In this document: piece by piece, positions 3,887 through 33,333 of the stretch
How positions within the stretch are numbered: position 1 is the stretch's first letter
Layout: each line of letters opens with the position of its first letter
Origin: a virus
DNA length: 34,008 nt
IMG/VR virus record: IMGVR_UViG_3300025536_000009
Span: 1-34,008 of that record
Strand: one strand, 5' to 3'
Made by a program: the position numbers and the translations under genes
Notes under the pieces: generated by a model
Databases searched by the model: none
Told to the model about the DNA's origin: nothing
Seen by the model: the letters and a program-made list of their open reading frames with translations, nothing else

Positions 3887-4092
3887 TGGACTACATCTCA
3901 GAGAAGCAGATGCTTGCATTGGTGAAGCTCTCTCTTGACTACAACACTCAAGTGACCGGAATTGCCATTCAGGTGCTCAACTCAAAGCACGGCATCAAGC
4001 ACAAGGAATTGCAGAAGACTCTTCAGCAATACAGTGCAGACTATAACAAACGAATTGAACAGATCATGGCTGAAGGAGACCAATCATCATGA
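3886..4092 (+). CDS. Hypothetical protein, 68 aa
   Basis: TAATG overlap; RBS aagggag. Confidence 0.65.
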   Translation: MDYISEKQMLALVKLSLDYNTQVTGIAIQVLNSKHGIKHKELQKTLQQYSADYNKRIEQIMAEGDQSS

Positions 4093-4376: not shown

Positions 4377-4549
4377 CACGCCGGACCAAGTGGGCAATCA
4401 CACTGACGGTCATTGGCTTCCTGCTCCTATGTGCATTCATGCTGATCCTTATGGACGGTGGTGAGATGATGATGGAGTACACGGCAGCATGGATCCTCAT
4501 TGGCTTTGCCGGAGCGGTGCTCTTCAATCTAGGAACGGCACTGCTATGA
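4373..4549 (+). CDS. Small membrane protein, 58 aa (below the ORF-track cutoff)
   Basis: Own translation: MTRRTKWAITLTVIGFLLLCAFMLILMDGGEMMMEYTAAWILIGFAGAVLFNLGTALL. ATGA overlaps at both ends. Two hydrophobic helices. Confidence 0.55.
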   Translation: MTRRTKWAITLTVIGFLLLCAFMLILMDGGEMMMEYTAAWILIGFAGAVLFNLGTALL

Positions 4550-4968
4550 AGAAGATGACTCTGCATGGAGCCACTATCAGCTTCAATGGCATTGAGATCC
4601 CCGGCAAGCGTGACGTTGAGCTGTTGGTTGATGACACTCCAAAGGTGTGGGACATCACCCCACCACAAGGATGGAACTGGACGGAAGATGATTGGAGAAT
4701 CTTCAACTTCTGCCGGGACTTAGACTTCAGAGGTGGAGTTGTGAGCGGTGGGCTTTTTGATCAGTATGTGCTTATTCAATACAACCGGAAGAAGCCGTCA
4801 AAGAGCTTGATCATAATTGAGAGAGTCATGGCTGACTGGACCAAAGAGAAGGTCAACATGCCGGATCACCCGTTCCCTCAACATGCTAAGTGCAGGAGCG
4901 TGGTGACAATACCAGATGATGACTTTGAGCTTCCGTCATACGCTGCCATCTATAGGAAGCAGCCATGA
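4546..4968 (+). CDS. Hypothetical protein, 140 aa
   Basis: Start taken at MKKMTLHG, coupled to the upstream stop. Confidence 0.7.
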   Translation: MKKMTLHGATISFNGIEIPGKRDVELLVDDTPKVWDITPPQGWNWTEDDWRIFNFCRDLDFRGGVVSGGLFDQYVLIQYNRKKPSKSLIIIERVMADWTKEKVNMPDHPFPQHAKCRSVVTIPDDDFELPSYAAIYRKQP

Positions 4969-5255
4969 ACGGGGTGCTTGAACTGAGGGAAGATCAGATC
5001 AACTTCTTGGTGGATTCTGAATGGACCTGTCCTGAGTGTGGTCATGATGAGGTGAAGCTCTATGTGCACCCTCACAAACATGCCGGGATCTATGAGTGTC
5101 AGAATGAAGAGTGCTTTGCAACGTGGGATTGTGAGCACCCGGACACTGAGACTGAGATAGTTGAGGATCCACCAATGCACCCGGAGCAGACGGCTGTCTA
5201 TCAAAGCAAGGTGGTGTTCTGCATCCTTTGCGGATCAGGGGTTGATCATGATTGA
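4965..5255 (+). CDS. Zinc-ribbon-like protein, 96 aa
   Basis: CPECGH..(20)..CQNEEC and a C-terminal CILCGSG cysteine pair; ATGA overlap. Confidence 0.6.
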   Translation: MNGVLELREDQINFLVDSEWTCPECGHDEVKLYVHPHKHAGIYECQNEECFATWDCEHPDTETEIVEDPPMHPEQTAVYQSKVVFCILCGSGVDHD

Positions 5256-5481
5256 TGAACAGAAGATCCCAATGGGAACCTATTCAGTGAGCTTCCAAAC
5301 GTGGTGGAGACACCCGTTCACAAGCAAGAATCACATGGACCACCGTGTCTTCAGCCTATATGAAGACATGTCAGAAGCAACGCTTTGTGATCAGATTGCT
5401 CAATGGATGACGGATCATTCCGGTGGTGCCAAGTGCCACATGGTGAAGATCTATTCCATCCATAAGCTTGACATTCAATAA
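5248..5481 (+). CDS. Hypothetical protein, 77 aa
   Basis: Start at MIDEQKI, 8-nt overlap with the upstream gene. Confidence 0.6.
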   Translation: MIDEQKIPMGTYSVSFQTWWRHPFTSKNHMDHRVFSLYEDMSEATLCDQIAQWMTDHSGGAKCHMVKIYSIHKLDIQ

Positions 5482-5497
5482 GCGGTTGCGATATAAT
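5468..5497 (+). promoter_or_regulatory. Early/middle promoter cassette 2
   Basis: ttgacattcaataAGCGGTTGCGATATAAT, then leader ..actacaaactaagacatag and aaggagaccatcc before ATG 5533. Confidence 0.65.
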
Positions 5498-5532
5498 CAG
5501 ACTACAAACTAAGACATAGAAGGAGACCATCC

Positions 5533-6426
5533 ATGTCAACAGAACAAGATCAACAATCACTTGAGGATGCTCAGGTCAATGATCACTCTGATGCTCAAGA
5601 AGCTCAGATTGTGACACCACCTGCAGCTCCTGCAGCAGATGATAAGCCTGCAGACACACCTGCAGCTGAAGCACCAAAGCCACCGGCAGGCGTGCTCAGT
5701 GATGAAGACAAGCGTCAGATGACACTTGCTGCCCGGAACACGGAGACAAGCATCCTGAGTCCTGTCATGTATAACCAAAGCAAGCTAGTTGCCAAAGACT
5801 TCTATGATTCAGGTGCACTTCCAAAGCATCTGCAGAATGAGACTCAAGCCTTTGTGACAATCATCACGGGTGCTGAGATGGGGATGAAGCCAATGCAGGC
5901 AATCCAATCTCTCTACATCATCAATGGCATCATCACCCTTTGGGGCAAAGCGGTGCCACGTCAGATCAAAGCTCACGGCTACAAGTTCAAGTTCAAGGAT
6001 GAGACTCAAGAATCCTGCACCGTTGAGGTGTGGAAGGAAGATATGTATGGCAACAAGATTGAAGAGTATGAAGAGACCTTCAACTATCAAGATGCCGTTG
6101 ATTCCAAGTACACCGTTGACTCATATGGCAAGACCAAAGTTGGTTGGTTGCCGGGTCAGAACCGGAAGCTGAAGATGAGATACAACGTGCTGAGTGCACT
6201 GATCAAGACATACATTCCTGAAGTTCTTGGTGAAGCTGCAGATGTGGCTGAGGTTGCTCAGGACTTCATTGACATTGATGAAGCAGGCAACGTCAAAGTT
6301 GATCCAAAGACTGCCATCCGTGAAGCTCAGAAGCGGAAGCAGGCTGAAGCAACCACTACCGTGAAGCATACTCCAAAGGCTGTTGCTCAGGAGCAGGGTG
6401 AGAAGAAGGAAGATGAAGCAGTATAA
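5533..6426 (+). CDS. Single-strand annealing protein, RecT/Red-beta-like (putative)
   Basis: Low-complexity acidic/Pro-Ala N-terminus, then AFVTIITGAEMGMKPMQAIQSLYIINGIITLWGKAV..., which resembles RecT-type cores. Adjacent to a PD-(D/E)XK exonuclease. Family assignment is from memory. Confidence 0.5.
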   Translation: MSTEQDQQSLEDAQVNDHSDAQEAQIVTPPAAPAADDKPADTPAAEAPKPPAGVLSDEDKRQMTLAARNTETSILSPVMYNQSKLVAKDFYDSGALPKHLQNETQAFVTIITGAEMGMKPMQAIQSLYIINGIITLWGKAVPRQIKAHGYKFKFKDETQESCTVEVWKEDMYGNKIEEYEETFNYQDAVDSKYTVDSYGKTKVGWLPGQNRKLKMRYNVLSALIKTYIPEVLGEAADVAEVAQDFIDIDEAGNVKVDPKTAIREAQKRKQAEATTTVKHTPKAVAQEQGEKKEDEAV

Positions 6427-29569: not shown

Positions 29570-30886
29570 TTATTCCTCATCTTCCTTCTTATTATCTGCT
29601 GTCACATCCGGGTACATTTCCGGGTGCTTGGCAACATTGTCATTGTAACGTTCTTTAGAGACTCCAGTGGCTTGCAATCCCGCTTTTGCTTCTGCACTCA
29701 GTTTATCATAGGGAGTTGCATCTTTGTCAACACCTTCACCACCGGCACCACCACCATTGCCACCATCTTCTGAATAGTTGACAACTTTTGGAGCGTGCTT
29801 GGTGAACTCTTTGAGCATCTCAGAGACTGGAACCTGAGTGGACTTGCCGTCCTTTGAGAACTCAACCTTCACATCACCGGACATTGCAAGAGCTTTGAAT
29901 GCCTTCTCCTGAGCAGGAACAATCTTGCCTGCTTTGAGAAGCTTCTCATATTCTTGATCAACTTCCTTCTTGCGGTATTCTTGAATCTGCTTCTGAGCTT
30001 TGGCAAGTTCAGCTTTGGTGCCTTCCTCTTCAGCAGCTGCAGCATCAGCATCTTCCTTCTCTTTTTTCTCACGGGCTTCACGCTCTTCATCAGTCTCTTC
30101 TTCTTCAGGAGCGGTGGATTCTGCAATGAGAGTCTCAACAACTTCCTTCTGATCTGCAGGAACTTCTACTTCAGCACCGGCTTCAACAGTCACGGTCTTG
30201 TCTTCATCACCTTCTCTGAAGGTAACTTCAACCGGATATTCTTTGTCATTGATGATCTTAACTTTGTCCATATCACTCTCCTTGCTTAATTCTTTTTTGA
30301 TCCCTGACCTGCTCAACATTATAGCATTAGCACCATAATTGGTGGCAACCTCTGCTCTGCATTCAGCAGTCACTTTGGCAAACGCTTCAAACGGAGTCAT
30401 GTCTTCAATATAAGGGTTGTTGACCAATGCAACGTGGTAGATTGCCGGTCCCTTCTCATCACCCTCTTTGGTGATCCAGTTCATTGTGAAGCCAATTGAG
30501 ACATCCCATATCAGGTCAGCTTCAATCTTCTCAACGGTCTCTTCATCACGGATGTCAAGGATTGCATCAATCCCGGCACCGTCTGCAGAGAGCATCATGT
30601 CAATGACTTCACCACGATTCTTGTCAGGATCATCAGTGTGGGAAGCAGGAACATAGACACGTCCAACCGTGCCGTCCTTGAAGTTCTGCAGGACTGATTC
30701 ACCCCATGCTTCATCAAGGTGCAGGAAGTATTCAGGGAACCATTGGTCAGCGTACTCACCAAAGTTGATGATCCTCTTCTTGTAGAGTTTGCCTTTGGCG
30801 TTTGGATATTCACTGTCACCGGCTGCATACCTGACTGCCTTTGAGTCATCAGGTTGCAATACTGTATAGAGCTTTTTGTCCTTCAT
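29570..30886 (-). CDS. Prohead protease/scaffold protein (Mu gpI-like), 438 aa, with a nested in-frame scaffold start at 30271
   Basis: ATG 30886 (MKDKKLY); the track start at 30907 is a TTG. N-terminal ..VPASHTDDP..WDVSIGF..HVALVNNPYIEDM. The C-terminal half is an E/K/A-rich coiled coil. Confidence 0.7.
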   Translation of the reverse strand: MKDKKLYTVLQPDDSKAVRYAAGDSEYPNAKGKLYKKRIINFGEYADQWFPEYFLHLDEAWGESVLQNFKDGTVGRVYVPASHTDDPDKNRGEVIDMMLSADGAGIDAILDIRDEETVEKIEADLIWDVSIGFTMNWITKEGDEKGPAIYHVALVNNPYIEDMTPFEAFAKVTAECRAEVATNYGANAIMLSRSGIKKELSKESDMDKVKIINDKEYPVEVTFREGDEDKTVTVEAGAEVEVPADQKEVVETLIAESTAPEEEETDEEREAREKKEKEDADAAAAEEEGTKAELAKAQKQIQEYRKKEVDQEYEKLLKAGKIVPAQEKAFKALAMSGDVKVEFSKDGKSTQVPVSEMLKEFTKHAPKVVNYSEDGGNGGGAGGEGVDKDATPYDKLSAEAKAGLQATGVSKERYNDNVAKHPEMYPDVTADNKKEDEE

Positions 30887-30915
30887 ATCTTTACTATATC
30901 CCTTCAATGCTTATG

Positions 30916-33333
30916 TTACAACGCTTGATTCTTAGCCACAACTTCTTCAGGAATGTCCGGGATCCCGGTGGTCTCAGGAATATCAGTCTGATCCTTCTTG
31001 ATTGCAATCCATATGCAACGGCAGAAGCCGTGTTCAGGTGGCTGATATGGAGAAGCTTTGTATTCCTCATGCTCAACAACCGTTCCATCCATTGCTTCAC
31101 AAAGCTCACACGTCACGTCATCCAAGATTGCTGAATACTGATAGACCTCAATGTCCTCTTTGGCTGTCTCAAAGACATCATCACGGGACCGGTTGATTGC
31201 CTGAGCAACTGCTATCACGCCGGTGAGTGAGATGGTCTTCTGATAGAACTGCTCAAAGTCCTCACCAAGCAAGGCAGCAATCTCTTCAGGTGTGGCAAAC
31301 TCATGACCCCGTGAGAGCTGTCCCTTGTGGAACTCTGATGTGACCTTCTGCTTGATGATGAATGTGAGATCACTGAACTGCTTGTCAGCAATGCTCTTGC
31401 CGTTCTGCTTGAAGTATTCCTTTGACTCTTTGGGAGTGGTTGGAATGCCAATGTCAAGGTCATCAGACGTGATCTTCTTCCCGGCATTGTAAGTCTCAAG
31501 GCTCTGATCAGTAATGGTCTGAGCATACTTGTCAGCACCCGTCAGGCTGAAGTCTTCAAGCTTGGTGATGTCACCACCTTCAAGGATTGGCTTGATGTCT
31601 TCCAGTGCCTGAGCAACCACGTCATCAAAGACCGGCTTCATGGCAGCATCAAACTTCTTCTCTTGACTGATGATCTTGTCTTCTATTGCAGCAAGGTTGG
31701 TGTTGGCTTCAGCAGGTGAGAGATCCCGTCTCCAAGCAAGCTCCTGCTTCTCAGTGTCAAAGTGCCGGGCACTTGCACCACGCCGGTGACTATGACTCAG
31801 TTTTTTTTTTGACCGGCTGAGGGCAGCAGCAGTTGGCGTGAATGTCTTGGCAGGTTCAAGGATCCCATCAATCTCTTCATCTGATAGGGTAGGGAATGAA
31901 GCAACAATCACGGCACGTCCGGTGTCATATGGCATCTGACCCGTGACAATCTGAGTGACAATGGAGAGCAGGCTTGCAATCTGAGCACCGTTCAAAGCGG
32001 TCTTTGCAATCTCTTCCACTTCAGCCACTACTGCAGCACCGCCTTCAGGCAGCTCTTCACCGGTATCATTCACGTCATCAGCCTTCAGTTCAGTCAGGTC
32101 AATGTCAAGCCGGTCTGCAACCTGCTCAACCAAGCCGTCCACAAAGTCCTTCCGGAGATCAGTCTTCTTCACGATCTCAAGGAAGATGCTCTCAATGAAG
32201 TCAGCGGTGTCATCTGACATGTCATTGAAGCGGAACTCAGGATAGTATTGAGTCTCATAGTTGTAGTCAATCAGCTGAGGGATCAGGTATGAATTGATAT
32301 GCTCTTCAACTTCAGCCATCATTCCCCGGAGTGCCATCATGAACAGGTCAGCGTGTGACTTGCTCAATGCAAAGGAGCCGGTCTTGTCCCCGGATCCAAG
32401 CAGGATGAACTGAGCCAAGACGGAACGTGCCATCTGAGCATCTTGGTGATCAATGCCGGGCATAGGATCAATCCGTCCCTTGCCTGCATCATAAGGGTTC
32501 AGCTTATAACCGGTAGGGACAAGCACTGCTGAGTCAATGCCAAAGCGGTCCATTGCCTGCAGGTTGGCACGCTGAGTGGACTCAGTGTCATCATTGCCTT
32601 CTTGAACCTCAAGCATCTTTGGTGGCATGGCACCCTTCTCAACGCTCTGCTCATAAAGGTAGTAGAGACGGCGTTTGCGGTCCCAATGGTAGTATGCAGA
32701 TTGGAATGCTGACTGACCATAGATCTCATCCTCATCTTTGTTGTAAGTGTAGAGGAAGCACTTCTCAACAGGGATCTGAACGGTGATGGTCTTCTTCTGT
32801 TCCTTTGAATAATAGCTTTGCTCAAAGCCTGCAAAGCCACCCTTGTCATCTCTGAGGACAGTGACTTCAGTGACATCACGGAATGCAATCTTCCTATATA
32901 CAATCTTGCCCTGCTCATTCAGAGTCCACACCTTCTCTGCAATGGCATAGCCTTCAAGCACTGCTTTGAGTGTCCGGGCAATGACCAAGCGGAATGGAGT
33001 TGTCATGCCACCCTTGTGAGGTGGACGGGTGAAGTTATCAAGGACGTGATCAGCCTGCTCTTTGGCTGCCTTCTGCAGACCTTCCGGAACCTCTTCAGGA
33101 TCCAGTCTCCAACTGTTTGACATGATAGGCATTCTCAGGATCTGATAGAGTGAACGGACCGTGCCGTCATTGTCCTTCATGAACCGGAGATCTTTGATGC
33201 TGACTTTGCTGCTAGTCTTCTTCTTGACGGTGAGCATGTCTGCAAGACTACCACCAGAGGTGCCAAGCTCACTGTCAATGTCAGGCTTCTCAGTCCGGGC
33301 AAAGTTCTTCTTGTTTGTTGCTTGTATGATCAT
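30916..33333 (-). CDS. Portal protein (Mu gp29/DUF935-like, about aa 1-510) fused in frame to a Mu gpF/SPP1 gp7-like minor head protein domain
   Basis: Lies immediately downstream of terL. The C-terminal ..AQAINRSRDDVF..YQYSAILDDVTCELCEAMDGTVV..YQPPEHGFCRCIW is the MuF-type signature. Confidence 0.8.
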   Translation of the reverse strand: MIIQATNKKNFARTEKPDIDSELGTSGGSLADMLTVKKKTSSKVSIKDLRFMKDNDGTVRSLYQILRMPIMSNSWRLDPEEVPEGLQKAAKEQADHVLDNFTRPPHKGGMTTPFRLVIARTLKAVLEGYAIAEKVWTLNEQGKIVYRKIAFRDVTEVTVLRDDKGGFAGFEQSYYSKEQKKTITVQIPVEKCFLYTYNKDEDEIYGQSAFQSAYYHWDRKRRLYYLYEQSVEKGAMPPKMLEVQEGNDDTESTQRANLQAMDRFGIDSAVLVPTGYKLNPYDAGKGRIDPMPGIDHQDAQMARSVLAQFILLGSGDKTGSFALSKSHADLFMMALRGMMAEVEEHINSYLIPQLIDYNYETQYYPEFRFNDMSDDTADFIESIFLEIVKKTDLRKDFVDGLVEQVADRLDIDLTELKADDVNDTGEELPEGGAAVVAEVEEIAKTALNGAQIASLLSIVTQIVTGQMPYDTGRAVIVASFPTLSDEEIDGILEPAKTFTPTAAALSRSKKKLSHSHRRGASARHFDTEKQELAWRRDLSPAEANTNLAAIEDKIISQEKKFDAAMKPVFDDVVAQALEDIKPILEGGDITKLEDFSLTGADKYAQTITDQSLETYNAGKKITSDDLDIGIPTTPKESKEYFKQNGKSIADKQFSDLTFIIKQKVTSEFHKGQLSRGHEFATPEEIAALLGEDFEQFYQKTISLTGVIAVAQAINRSRDDVFETAKEDIEVYQYSAILDDVTCELCEAMDGTVVEHEEYKASPYQPPEHGFCRCIWIAIKKDQTDIPETTGIPDIPEEVVAKNQAL
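31801..31810 (-). other. A10 homopolymer (T10 on the plus strand) at the portal/MuF domain junction; candidate slippage site
   Basis: Minus strand cgg tcA AAA AAA AAA ctg agt cat agt (codons 508-511). With A11 or a -1 shift it reads act gag tca TAG. With A9 or a +1 shift it reads aac TGA. Confidence 0.5.

Follow-up and report, generated by a model that had tools for sequence, protein, structure and literature searches.

Two proteins are produced from one gene by slippage on a homopolymer in dnaX of Thermus thermophilus, which contains nine consecutive A and, close by, stop codons in both alternative frames and yields its products at about 1:1, and other dnaX lineages use -1 ribosomal frameshifting (PMC5009743). 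On 9 A/T, RNA polymerase slips very efficiently in vivo, the RNA:DNA hybrid being 9-10 bp long (PMC5009743). In dnaX of E. coli the heptamer A AAA AAG is combined with a hairpin and an immediate stop. Recoded structural genes of phages include the tail chaperone pair G/GT (G GGA AAG in lambda) and the T7 capsid gene 10A/10B, in which conserved recoding yields, at a fixed ratio, a short protein and one with an extended C-terminus. Conserved coding A-runs are further used via RNA polymerase slippage in transposases of IS elements and in Shigella mxiE (PMC1088944). Slippage of the truncation type is hard to detect by comparison (Baranov et al.).

A defining feature of MuF proteins is that they are encoded directly downstream of the portal gene; MuF of SPP1 (gp7) is a portal-binding protein of which each capsid contains only 1-2 copies (PMC5576092). 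Portal and MuF-like functions are found in one fused gene in Microbacterium phages of clusters EA3, EA5, EA8 and EB (PMC7302621). These fusions were reported as plain ones, neither a slippery site nor a second product being described, and belong to actinobacteriophages with only distant portal similarity to the gene described here. No report of recoding at portal or MuF genes was found in the literature searched, which described plain fusions only; slippage or recoding of a portal-MuF gene is thus most likely not previously reported, whereas slippage of the dnaX type was already known.

The window analysed here is a stretch of 34,008 nucleotides from a virus record (IMGVR_UViG_3300025536_000009). 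The gene of interest and its parts are the following, with the type of evidence in brackets:

30916..33333, minus strand: zero-frame open reading frame of 805 aa with ATG start, the portal-MuF fusion and long product (ORF listing, Pfam)
31828..33333, minus strand: portal part, codons 1-502, a Mu gp29-like domain and C-terminal helices to about residue 500 (Pfam, phrog_113, structure model)
31801..31810, minus strand: A10 tract on the coding strand (T10 on the plus, template strand), the proposed slippage site (sequence)
31797..31799, minus strand: TGA stop reached after one A fewer or a +1 shift, giving 511 aa ending in ...KKN (translation)
31790..31792, minus strand: TAG stop reached after one extra A or a -1 shift, giving 514 aa ending in ...KKKTES (translation)
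31753..31827, minus strand: inter-domain linker, codons 503-527, predicted to be disordered (pLDDT below 50, variable alignment columns)
30919..31752, minus strand: MuF part (minor head/morphogenesis protein), codons 528-805 (profile matches, alignment)

That this frame joins a Mu-like portal to a MuF-like protein, as a preliminary description had proposed from the letters, was borne out by Pfam matches above the cut-offs: Portal_Mu (PF06074) on residues 52-380 with 131.9 bits (cut-off 23.9) and Phage_Mu_F (PF04233) on residues 713-774 with 37.5 bits (cut-off 29.6). The portal part was also matched by phrog_113 (portal) and PF21919, and the MuF part by several PHROG head-morphogenesis families. 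By profile score and position in the head module the first part is a Mu gp29-like portal, and by profile score and its place directly after the portal, here fused in frame, the second is a protein of the MuF/SPP1 gp7 type. Genes for a Mu-like protease (weak PF10123 match), a cement protein and a Mu gpT capsid protein follow downstream, and a terminase gene lies upstream in relatives. A near-identity search of GenBank phages gave no match, so that no annotated close relative is available, and a scan of viral contigs with the single 805-aa protein as query retrieved no relatives; alignment-based scans did retrieve them. About 90 homologues have the same portal-MuF fusion.

The A10 tract comprises the third base of codon S508 and codons K509-K511 in the coding-strand context agc cgg tcA AAA AAA AAA ctg agt cat agt cac, and it is the sole homopolymer of at least 8 nt in the window. 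In the structure model residues 432-500 are confident, while residues 503-527, with pLDDT below 50, lie between two confidently folded parts; the tract is therefore predicted to sit in a disordered linker separating the portal and MuF folds. The linker differs in length among relatives, and the conserved motif L-S-R ([LNQ]-S-[RK] in the alignment) stands immediately before the tract. The MuF part begins with the conserved motif W-R-R-D-L-S-P-A-E (residues 534-542). It was claimed to lack a start of its own for about 60 codons, which is nearly correct: the first in-frame start-like codon past the tract is an ATG at codon 565, 54 codons on, that lacks a suitably spaced Shine-Dalgarno sequence and lies past the WRRDLSPAE motif. 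Translation of the sequence also gave the two predicted truncated portal-only products of 511 and 514 aa, as the tract is followed by TGA after 1 codon and by TAG after 3 codons in the shifted frames.

The preliminary description had pointed to these stops as part of the arrangement. They are present as it stated, but compared with the background of the frames themselves they say little about design. In the -1 frame the observed median distance to a stop was 3 codons against a background median of 5-9 (combined P = 0.33), and in the +1 frame stops were mildly nearer (median 5 against 10-22, P = 0.017, with lineages that are not independent). The closeness of the stops is weak evidence and largely what chance gives, because -1-frame stops are close throughout this reading frame.

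Codon usage is more telling. Lysine is encoded by 9 AAA and 50 AAG codons in the rest of the 805-aa frame and by 156 AAA and 590 AAG codons (21% AAA) in the whole window. Among the eight KKK tripeptides of the window, six are encoded as AAGAAGAAG, including the other one of the 805-aa frame, one as AAAAAGAAG, and only that of the junction as AAAAAAAAA. The A10 tract is hence encoded against the codon preference of the phage. When synonymous codons were resampled from the usage of the window, a run of at least 10 arose anywhere in 3% of genomes and one of at least 9 in 16%, which is modest evidence on its own. We regard codon usage together with conservation in relatives as the decisive evidence that the tract is under selection.

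When the junction was compared between related phages, A9 (6 clusters) or A10 (13 clusters) was found to be kept in 19 of 21 relative clusters, which fall into two separate clades, despite a diverged linker and pairwise protein identities of 36-92% (median 45%). The distance from the tract to the MuF W-motif varies from 8 to 26 codons, all three codon registers occur, and in one relative (L176) the tract is kept although the peptide there is S-K-K-N. It is the sole homopolymer of at least 8 nt in each of the 19 loci (143.8 kb in total). At 14 conserved lysine columns elsewhere, the mean AAA fraction was 0.32 and none was all-AAA. These comparisons argue that the tract is maintained by selection at the nucleotide level, beyond the needs of the protein. 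Two close relatives depart from this pattern: L173/P0010 has no tract, and L182/P0004 has only an in-register A7 (agA AAA AAA), set against its own lysine usage of 9 AAA to 48 AAG. The tract would thus be dispensable there, or replaceable by another signal. A further A8 tract (L076) was discounted as it belongs to a very AT-rich phage with several A-runs nearby, and locus L034, with an in-frame stop inside the portal domain, was taken as an error or pseudogene.

With fair but not firm confidence, we read the A10 tract as a selected recoding signal of the Thermus dnaX tau/gamma type, by which a portal and a portal-MuF protein would be obtained from one gene. Slippage would probably be mainly transcriptional. 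RNA polymerase would copy the dT10 template into rA10, which matches the RNA:DNA hybrid (9-10 bp) in length, so that the transcript could realign without mismatches. In some mRNAs the tract would then be A9 or A11. The 805-aa fusion (about 90 kDa) would come from unslipped mRNAs and from those with a 3-nt insertion or deletion, whereas mRNAs with one A more or fewer would stop after 1-3 codons and give the 511- or 514-aa portal (about 57 kDa) without MuF. In such a scheme the portal dodecamer would be built from a fixed mix of plain and MuF-carrying subunits, the tract setting their ratio, and the mixed ring would hold MuF below 12 copies and place it inside the procapsid. As the fusion is the zero-frame product, MuF-bearing subunits might be the majority, which fits poorly with the stoichiometry of SPP1.

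Several properties of the locus are those looked for in transcriptional slippage: a run of at least 9 A/T, conservation beyond protein needs (except in L173 and L182) and stops in both frames. The length of 9-10 nt fits slippage by the polymerase. A9 runs are, however, tolerated without slippage in some bacteria (PMC1088944). Folding of the sequences up- and downstream of the A-tracts in 19 relatives revealed no consistent hairpin; for the 60 nt downstream, z was +0.2 in the window and -0.4 on average over the 19 relatives, with no shared stem. This lack of conserved RNA structure is as expected for a self-sufficient A-run.

The same two products could also arise from homogeneous transcripts if ribosomes shifted to the -1 frame on A AAA AAA or slid on the poly(A) lysine codons, a mode that we consider rather unlikely here though worth keeping in mind. 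In sister clades this junction carries classical -1 heptamers (U UUU UUA with a hairpin, C CCA AAA and G GGA AAG), and the A7 that L182/P0004 has kept, contrary to its codon preference, is more in line with frameshifting by ribosomes than with slippage by the polymerase. The in-register heptamer of the type X XXY YYZ that this mode needs is present in tcA AAA AAA AAA, but trivially so, as A AAA AAA is contained in any A-run of at least 7. For ribosomes 7 nt would do, yet a length of 9 or 10 nt is seen in 19 of the 20 tracts; the minimal heptamer A AAA AAG occurs in none, and the few tracts ending in AAG still measure 9-10 nt. Neither a conserved stimulatory structure, be it a hairpin or pseudoknot downstream or a structure upstream, nor a Shine-Dalgarno-like element was found in the window and the 19 relatives. 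The somewhat nearer +1-frame stops also speak against a -1 shift, a point that is relevant only if deletions occur as well. Much less probable is that the A-run has no role in recoding, being a tolerated lysine-rich linker or serving another purpose at the DNA or RNA level, and that only the fusion is made, any separation of its two parts being due to cleavage by the prohead protease at the conserved [L/N/Q]-S-[R/K]. Nearly all clades have such a motif ahead of the junction, whether they carry a tract or not, a gene for a Mu-like protease lies downstream, and recoding signals are absent from many fused clades. The portal of Mu is itself processed at the C-terminus during head maturation. A neutral linker fails to explain why the lysines are all encoded by AAA in 19 clusters with an AAA preference of 15-21%, and why the tract keeps its narrow length of 9-10 nt through changes of position, register and peptide. 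No intrinsic terminator or promoter element was present at T10 on either strand, and proteolysis would be compatible with recoding rather than a substitute for it.

The preliminary description had also raised the alternative that the length of the tract reflects an error of sequencing or assembly, or that it varies in the phage population as a DNA-level contingency locus. Homopolymers are readily misread in sequencing and prone to mutation by slippage during replication, and minority variants would be hidden by consensus assemblies. Yet independent assemblies gave the identical in-frame protein for each of the three closest phages (3 assemblies, from JGI, Logan and ENA, for one, and 3 and 13 for the others), so that 19 of 19 assemblies were in frame at the consensus level, and every tract-bearing contig is in frame. 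The phage of the window itself occurs in the metagenomes JGI 3300001798, SRR27947147/48/50 and SRR28981358/90. None of six predicted out-of-frame truncated proteins was found by exact look-up among about 15 billion proteins. Sequencing or assembly error is thereby largely refuted, and error and phase variation together are given very little weight.

Signals of a classical type were detected at the homologous junction in other clades. Nine clusters share an invariant in-register caT TTT TTA (U UUU UUA), built from codons that are nearly unused elsewhere in these frames (for example TTA in 0 of 62 Leu and TTT in 0 of 32 Phe), with a -1 stop 1-2 codons after the heptamer. When folded one by one, seven of eight sequences showed a hairpin 5-8 nt downstream, and RNAalifold found no single consensus stem in this clade because the stems vary in sequence and register between subclades. 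In three loci (L039, L165 and L179, the last being the only one added by a second scan for relatives of this type), an in-register C CCA AAA is present and the conserved N-terminus of MuF lies in the -1 frame with no start codon. The isolate phiT1, a Rossellomorea phage (PV767480.1), carries G GGA AAG, identical to the heptamer of lambda G/GT, directly before the portal stop; here too MuF lies in the -1 frame, and a shift would give a gp61-gp60 fusion of about 87 kDa. In about half of the fused clades no recoding signal was detected at the junction, and fusion alone would therefore suffice in some phages. One locus (L166) bears an ADP-ribosyltransferase toxin instead of MuF as its C-terminal cargo. 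The preliminary description took fused relatives lacking a homopolymer as an argument against slippage. Such relatives do exist in many clades, but they do not refute the idea, because several of them carry other recoding signals at this place. Its core proposal, portal-only and fusion products made by means of a slippery homopolymer, is supported by codon bias, conservation, the linker position, the missing MuF start and these frameshift signals.

Compared with the systems described above, the locus resembles Thermus dnaX in its coding-strand A-homopolymer, in the long product being encoded in the zero frame with stops in both other frames, and in the prediction that slipped mRNAs give a C-terminally truncated protein without the distal domains. 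It differs in being a phage structural gene instead of a replicase subunit and in its tract of A9-A10. As in the dnaX family, signals interchange among lineages of the portal-MuF family, but unlike in Thermus dnaX some relatives are mirrored, the short product being zero-frame and the fusion arising by a -1 shift. The layout of E. coli dnaX is that of the U UUU UUA sister clade and is a possible mode for the A-tract as well, although in the window neither a conserved hairpin downstream nor a stimulator resembling a Shine-Dalgarno sequence is present, and the run exceeds a heptamer in length. Like G/GT and 10A/10B, the gene would give a short and a C-terminally extended structural protein; in contrast to these, the extension is the default product that slippage would truncate, and the gene pair is portal/MuF. 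In IS transposases and mxiE slippage fuses two frames into a longer active protein, whereas here it would remove a domain.

Taken together, the junctions suggest, at slightly better than even probability, that the portal/MuF boundary is a recoding hot spot with at least four interchangeable signals (the A9-10 polymerase-slippage tract, U UUU UUA with hairpin, C CCA AAA and G GGA AAG). These would act in two polarities, slippage truncating a default fusion in one and a -1 shift extending a default portal to the fusion in the other, and would share a hetero-oligomeric portal ring as outcome. This reading may span a large family of phages with Mu-like heads, about 33-45 kb in size and for the most part uncultured.

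If true, only some subunits of the ring would carry the C-terminal cargo (MuF, or the toxin in L166), and recoding would offer a general and genetically encoded means by which internal or ejected proteins are dosed and loaded via the portal. The portal gene would join the few recoded structural genes of phages, such as tail chaperone G/GT and some capsid genes. It would also be a second natural case, besides dnaX, of a gene family in which slippage by the polymerase and frameshifting by the ribosome take each other's place at a single position. Gene callers report either one long 'portal' or a portal and an N-terminally truncated MuF (as in L165 and phiT1), and would miss one real product each way. 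As a cultured phage, phiT1 would offer an immediate test system. About one in three tailed phages has a MuF protein. If MuF were covalently tethered and sub-stoichiometric, this would explain how a few copies of it reach the portal vertex, and tethered C-terminal cargo suggests a loading route for toxin or ejection domains.

The tract lies inside a single gene that joins a portal to a MuF-like protein. The preliminary description had placed an A10 run at the portal/MuF junction, at codons 508-511 of an 805-aa ORF, and sequence, ORF search and Pfam bore this out in every detail.

31801-31810, T10 on the + strand, A10 on the - strand: homopolymer (sequence read)
30916-33333, - strand: portal-MuF ORF, ATG start, 805 aa (ORF search)

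On the - strand the context reads agc cgg tcA AAA AAA AAA ctg agt cat agt cac. The Mu gp29-type portal domain (residues 52-380, 131.9 bits) and the MuF domain (residues 713-774, 37.5 bits) both exceed the curated Pfam thresholds, and PHROGs agrees on both assignments. Because residues 503-527 have a pLDDT below 50 and are flanked by two confidently folded parts in the AlphaFold2 model (input alignment of 37 homologues), the model places the tract in an inter-domain linker. Conceptual translation reproduced the products proposed for one A more or less: an A11 variant yields 514 aa ending in KKKTES and an A9 variant 511 aa ending in KKN. As also described, the MuF part has no early start of its own; the earliest in-frame start-like codon 3' of the tract, ATG 565, is already past the WRRDLSPAE motif (W-motif) that opens it. 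On the 3' side follow a weak match to a Mu-like protease, a cement protein and the gene for a Mu gpT-type major capsid protein. By sequence the head module of this ~34 kb phage contig is Mu-like, and no close relative of the contig was found in GenBank. The ORF directly 3' of the portal-MuF gene (29570-30907, - strand, 445 aa, TTG start) matches only Mu-like protease I, and weakly; its C-terminal half is long, acidic and Lys-rich, and it may encode a protease with a nested scaffold, like Mu gpI/Z.

Judged within this genome, the tract is partly beyond chance. It is the only homopolymer of at least 8 nt in the 34 kb window, where 156 Lys codons are AAA and 590 AAG (21% AAA), and of eight KKK tripeptides six are encoded by AAGAAGAAG, one by AAAAAGAAG and the junction alone by AAAAAAAAA. 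In genomes simulated by drawing synonymous codons according to the codon usage of the window, 3% had a run of at least 10 somewhere.

Among 5.8 billion protein clusters searched, ~90 homologues of 711-867 aa were found, every one with the portal-MuF fusion, and DNA was obtained for ~180 loci (L-numbers; P-numbers denote homologous proteins). In a neighbour-joining tree of the fused ORFs (48 clusters at 95% identity), the tract is present throughout the window's clade and turns up again in a clade set apart from it (L015, L095, L024, L096), surrounded by lineages without one. After the closest relatives had been added, 19 of 21 clusters carried A10 (13) or A9 (6), with A7 in one and no tract in another. 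Protein identity among these sequences is 36-92% (median 45%), so unconstrained synonymous sites probably had ample time to change, and the nucleotides flanking the tract do vary from cluster to cluster. The tract lies 8-26 codons upstream of the W-motif in all three codon registers (e.g. tcA AAA AAA AAA, ctA AAA AAA AAg, cAA AAA AAA AAg, gct AAA AAA AAA); in L176 it encodes S-K-K-N, and nucleotides rather than three lysines are therefore what is kept. Conserved Lys columns in the same 19 ORFs (n=14) average 32% AAA and are all-AAA in 0/14. Calculated per ORF, the probability of three AAA codons lies between 0.002 and 0.15. None of the 19 loci (143.8 kb in total) has a homopolymer of at least 8 nt other than the junction tract. 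This comparison indicates purifying selection at the nucleotide level on a run of 9-10 A. Two close relatives break the rule: P0010 (67% identity), with the tract-less junction ctg agc aag cac tac (L173:2500-2600), and P0004 (73%), with only A7 in agA AAA AAA gca (L182:2521-2530). A module of ~55 residues ending the portal part (ALNGAQIASLL...FPxLxxxxIDxILxP; window ~31840-32010, residues ~442-498, columns 501-557 of protein alignment A1) occurs in the window and many relatives and is cleanly missing from P0011-P0018, P0020, P0043 and P0046; the A tract is kept with or without it. In L034 an in-frame stop (4051-4053) interrupts the portal domain of a fused gene that is intact elsewhere; a sequencing error or a pseudogene is the probable explanation.

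Assembly error and phase variation were offered as alternatives in the preliminary description. The exact window protein was found on three contigs (JGI, Logan and ENA assemblies), P0002 (89% identical) in 3 runs and P0003 (85% identical) in 13 runs, all in frame, and none of the six truncated proteins predicted from A9/A11-type genomes of these three phages occurred among ~15 billion proteins. At the level of assembled contigs, the tract is neither an artefact nor a visible DNA switch.

Other recoding signals were found at the same junction in other clades, a point beyond the preliminary description that has direct bearing on it. Nine clusters share an invariant ca/gT TTT TTA gcc/gct gat (H/R-F-L-A-D) seven codons 5' of the W-motif, containing U UUU UUA in register.

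U UUU UUA at the portal/MuF junction: L004:4497-4503, L007:4506-4512, L082:2002-2008
U UUU UUA at the portal/MuF junction: L083:4491-4497, L085:4497-4503, L086:4515-4521
U UUU UUA at the portal/MuF junction: L089:2185-2191, L094:4491-4497, L161:4485-4491

This clade is GC-rich and otherwise almost avoids TTA (0/62, 2/47, 0/60, 1/58, 0/64, 0/50 and 0/52 Leu codons elsewhere in the ORFs) and TTT (0-2 of ~30 Phe codons in most). A -1 shift ends in S* or SR* within 1-2 codons, and a stable hairpin, whose stem sequences vary by subclade, lies 5-8 nt 3' of the heptamer in seven of eight (z -1.8 to -3.4). The layout is that of E. coli dnaX, with fusion as default and truncation by a -1 shift, and the junction looks like a candidate dnaX-style frameshift site.

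A mirror layout, with portal as default, was found in three loci, where the portal ORF stops 25-30 codons past an in-register C CCA AAA and the MuF N-terminus W-x-R-x-L-T-P-A-E sits in the -1 frame.

C CCA AAA, mirror layout: L039:4362-4368, L165:4470-4476 (P0091), L179:4395-4401

Start-like codons in this -1 ORF occur only at least 50 codons past the motif, or not within the first 90 codons, so gene callers truncate MuF; in L165 its start is called too late, at 4647. The heptamer C CCA AAA is also found in register in three fused ORFs (L010, L050, L051), where the -1 frame closes 1-6 codons on; the L050 peptide D-P-K-V is identical to that at the L165 shift site. In L166 the -1 frame (4515-5147) opens precisely at the C CCA AAA site, with a stop codon immediately before, and codes for ~210 aa that include an ADP-ribosyltransferase toxin domain (PF03496); a separate gene further along (5147-6016) encodes MuF, and the arrangement would amount to a portal-toxin fusion by frameshifting. 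The portal gene gp61 of the cultured Rossellomorea phage phiT1 (L181, PV767480.1) ends in GAG GGA AAG TAA.

G GGA AAG + stop, end of phiT1 gp61: L181 2763-2772

The heptamer is that of lambda G-T, in phiT1 in register and directly 5' of the stop. The -1 frame runs on into gp60, which resembles MuF but carries the annotation of a second 'portal protein', its start called ~230 nt downstream. The conceptual 774-aa fusion aligns with window residues 41-783 as one HSP (E = 1e-33). No recognisable recoding signal was seen in about half of the fused clusters examined. From these sequences, four signals in two polarities appear to interchange at the junction across the family.

Taken together, the tract is very probably a selected two-product recoding signal, polymerase and ribosomal routes combined. 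The comparative evidence supports this slippage reading, and not the stop codons in both alternative frames emphasised in the preliminary description, which are weak evidence of design: the median distance from a -1 shift to the next stop is 5-9 codons anywhere in these ORFs, against 3 at the tract in 19 relatives (combined P = 0.33), and only the +1 stops are somewhat nearer than background (5 vs 10-22 codons, P = 0.017, in lineages that are not independent). In vivo, nine consecutive A or T residues make bacterial RNA polymerase, whose RNA:DNA hybrid spans 9-10 bp, slip highly efficiently, and in Thermus thermophilus dnaX the long tau product is in the zero frame, with a slippery 9-nt run, stops nearby in both other frames and a tau:gamma ratio of about 1:1; E. 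coli dnaX reaches the same outcome by -1 ribosomal frameshifting (PMC5009743, PMC1088944). Because the window tract agrees with the Thermus site in length and layout and likewise lacks accessory structure, polymerase slippage is favoured and seems the likelier main route. A ribosomal route, through a -1 frameshift or through sliding on A AAA AAA, is suggested by the ribosomal signals of sister clades and by L182, which retains only an in-register A7, and is rather unlikely as the main route; the two mechanisms are not mutually exclusive and yield identical proteins.

A conserved [L/N/Q]-S-[R/K] motif lies just 5' of the junction in nearly all clades, slippery signal or not.

31813-31821: L-S-R motif, codons 505-507, with an equivalent position in most loci

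It could be a maturation (prohead) protease site that also splits portal from MuF; proteolysis may add to recoding and may be the sole route in signal-less clades. In SPP1, the MuF protein is gp7; it is bound to the portal, and each capsid contains just 1-2 copies of it (PMC5576092). A fused gene lacking recoding would force 12 MuF copies per ring, and recoding would give a mixed ring of subunits with and without MuF, which may be the rationale for two products.

Portal-MuF fusions are known from Microbacterium phages, without recoding (PMC7302621). 'Portal' occurs nowhere in a large recoding review (PMC5009743) and 'frameshift' nowhere in the MuF toxin paper (PMC5576092), the GeneTack survey does not mention recoding at either gene, and the full-text literature searched contained no such report. 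The mechanism class is well known; new are the gene context and the family-wide swap of four signals and two polarities. The junction would offer a clean, testable and previously unannotated case of recoding in a central structural gene of phages, and phiT1 is a cultured relative on which it could be studied.
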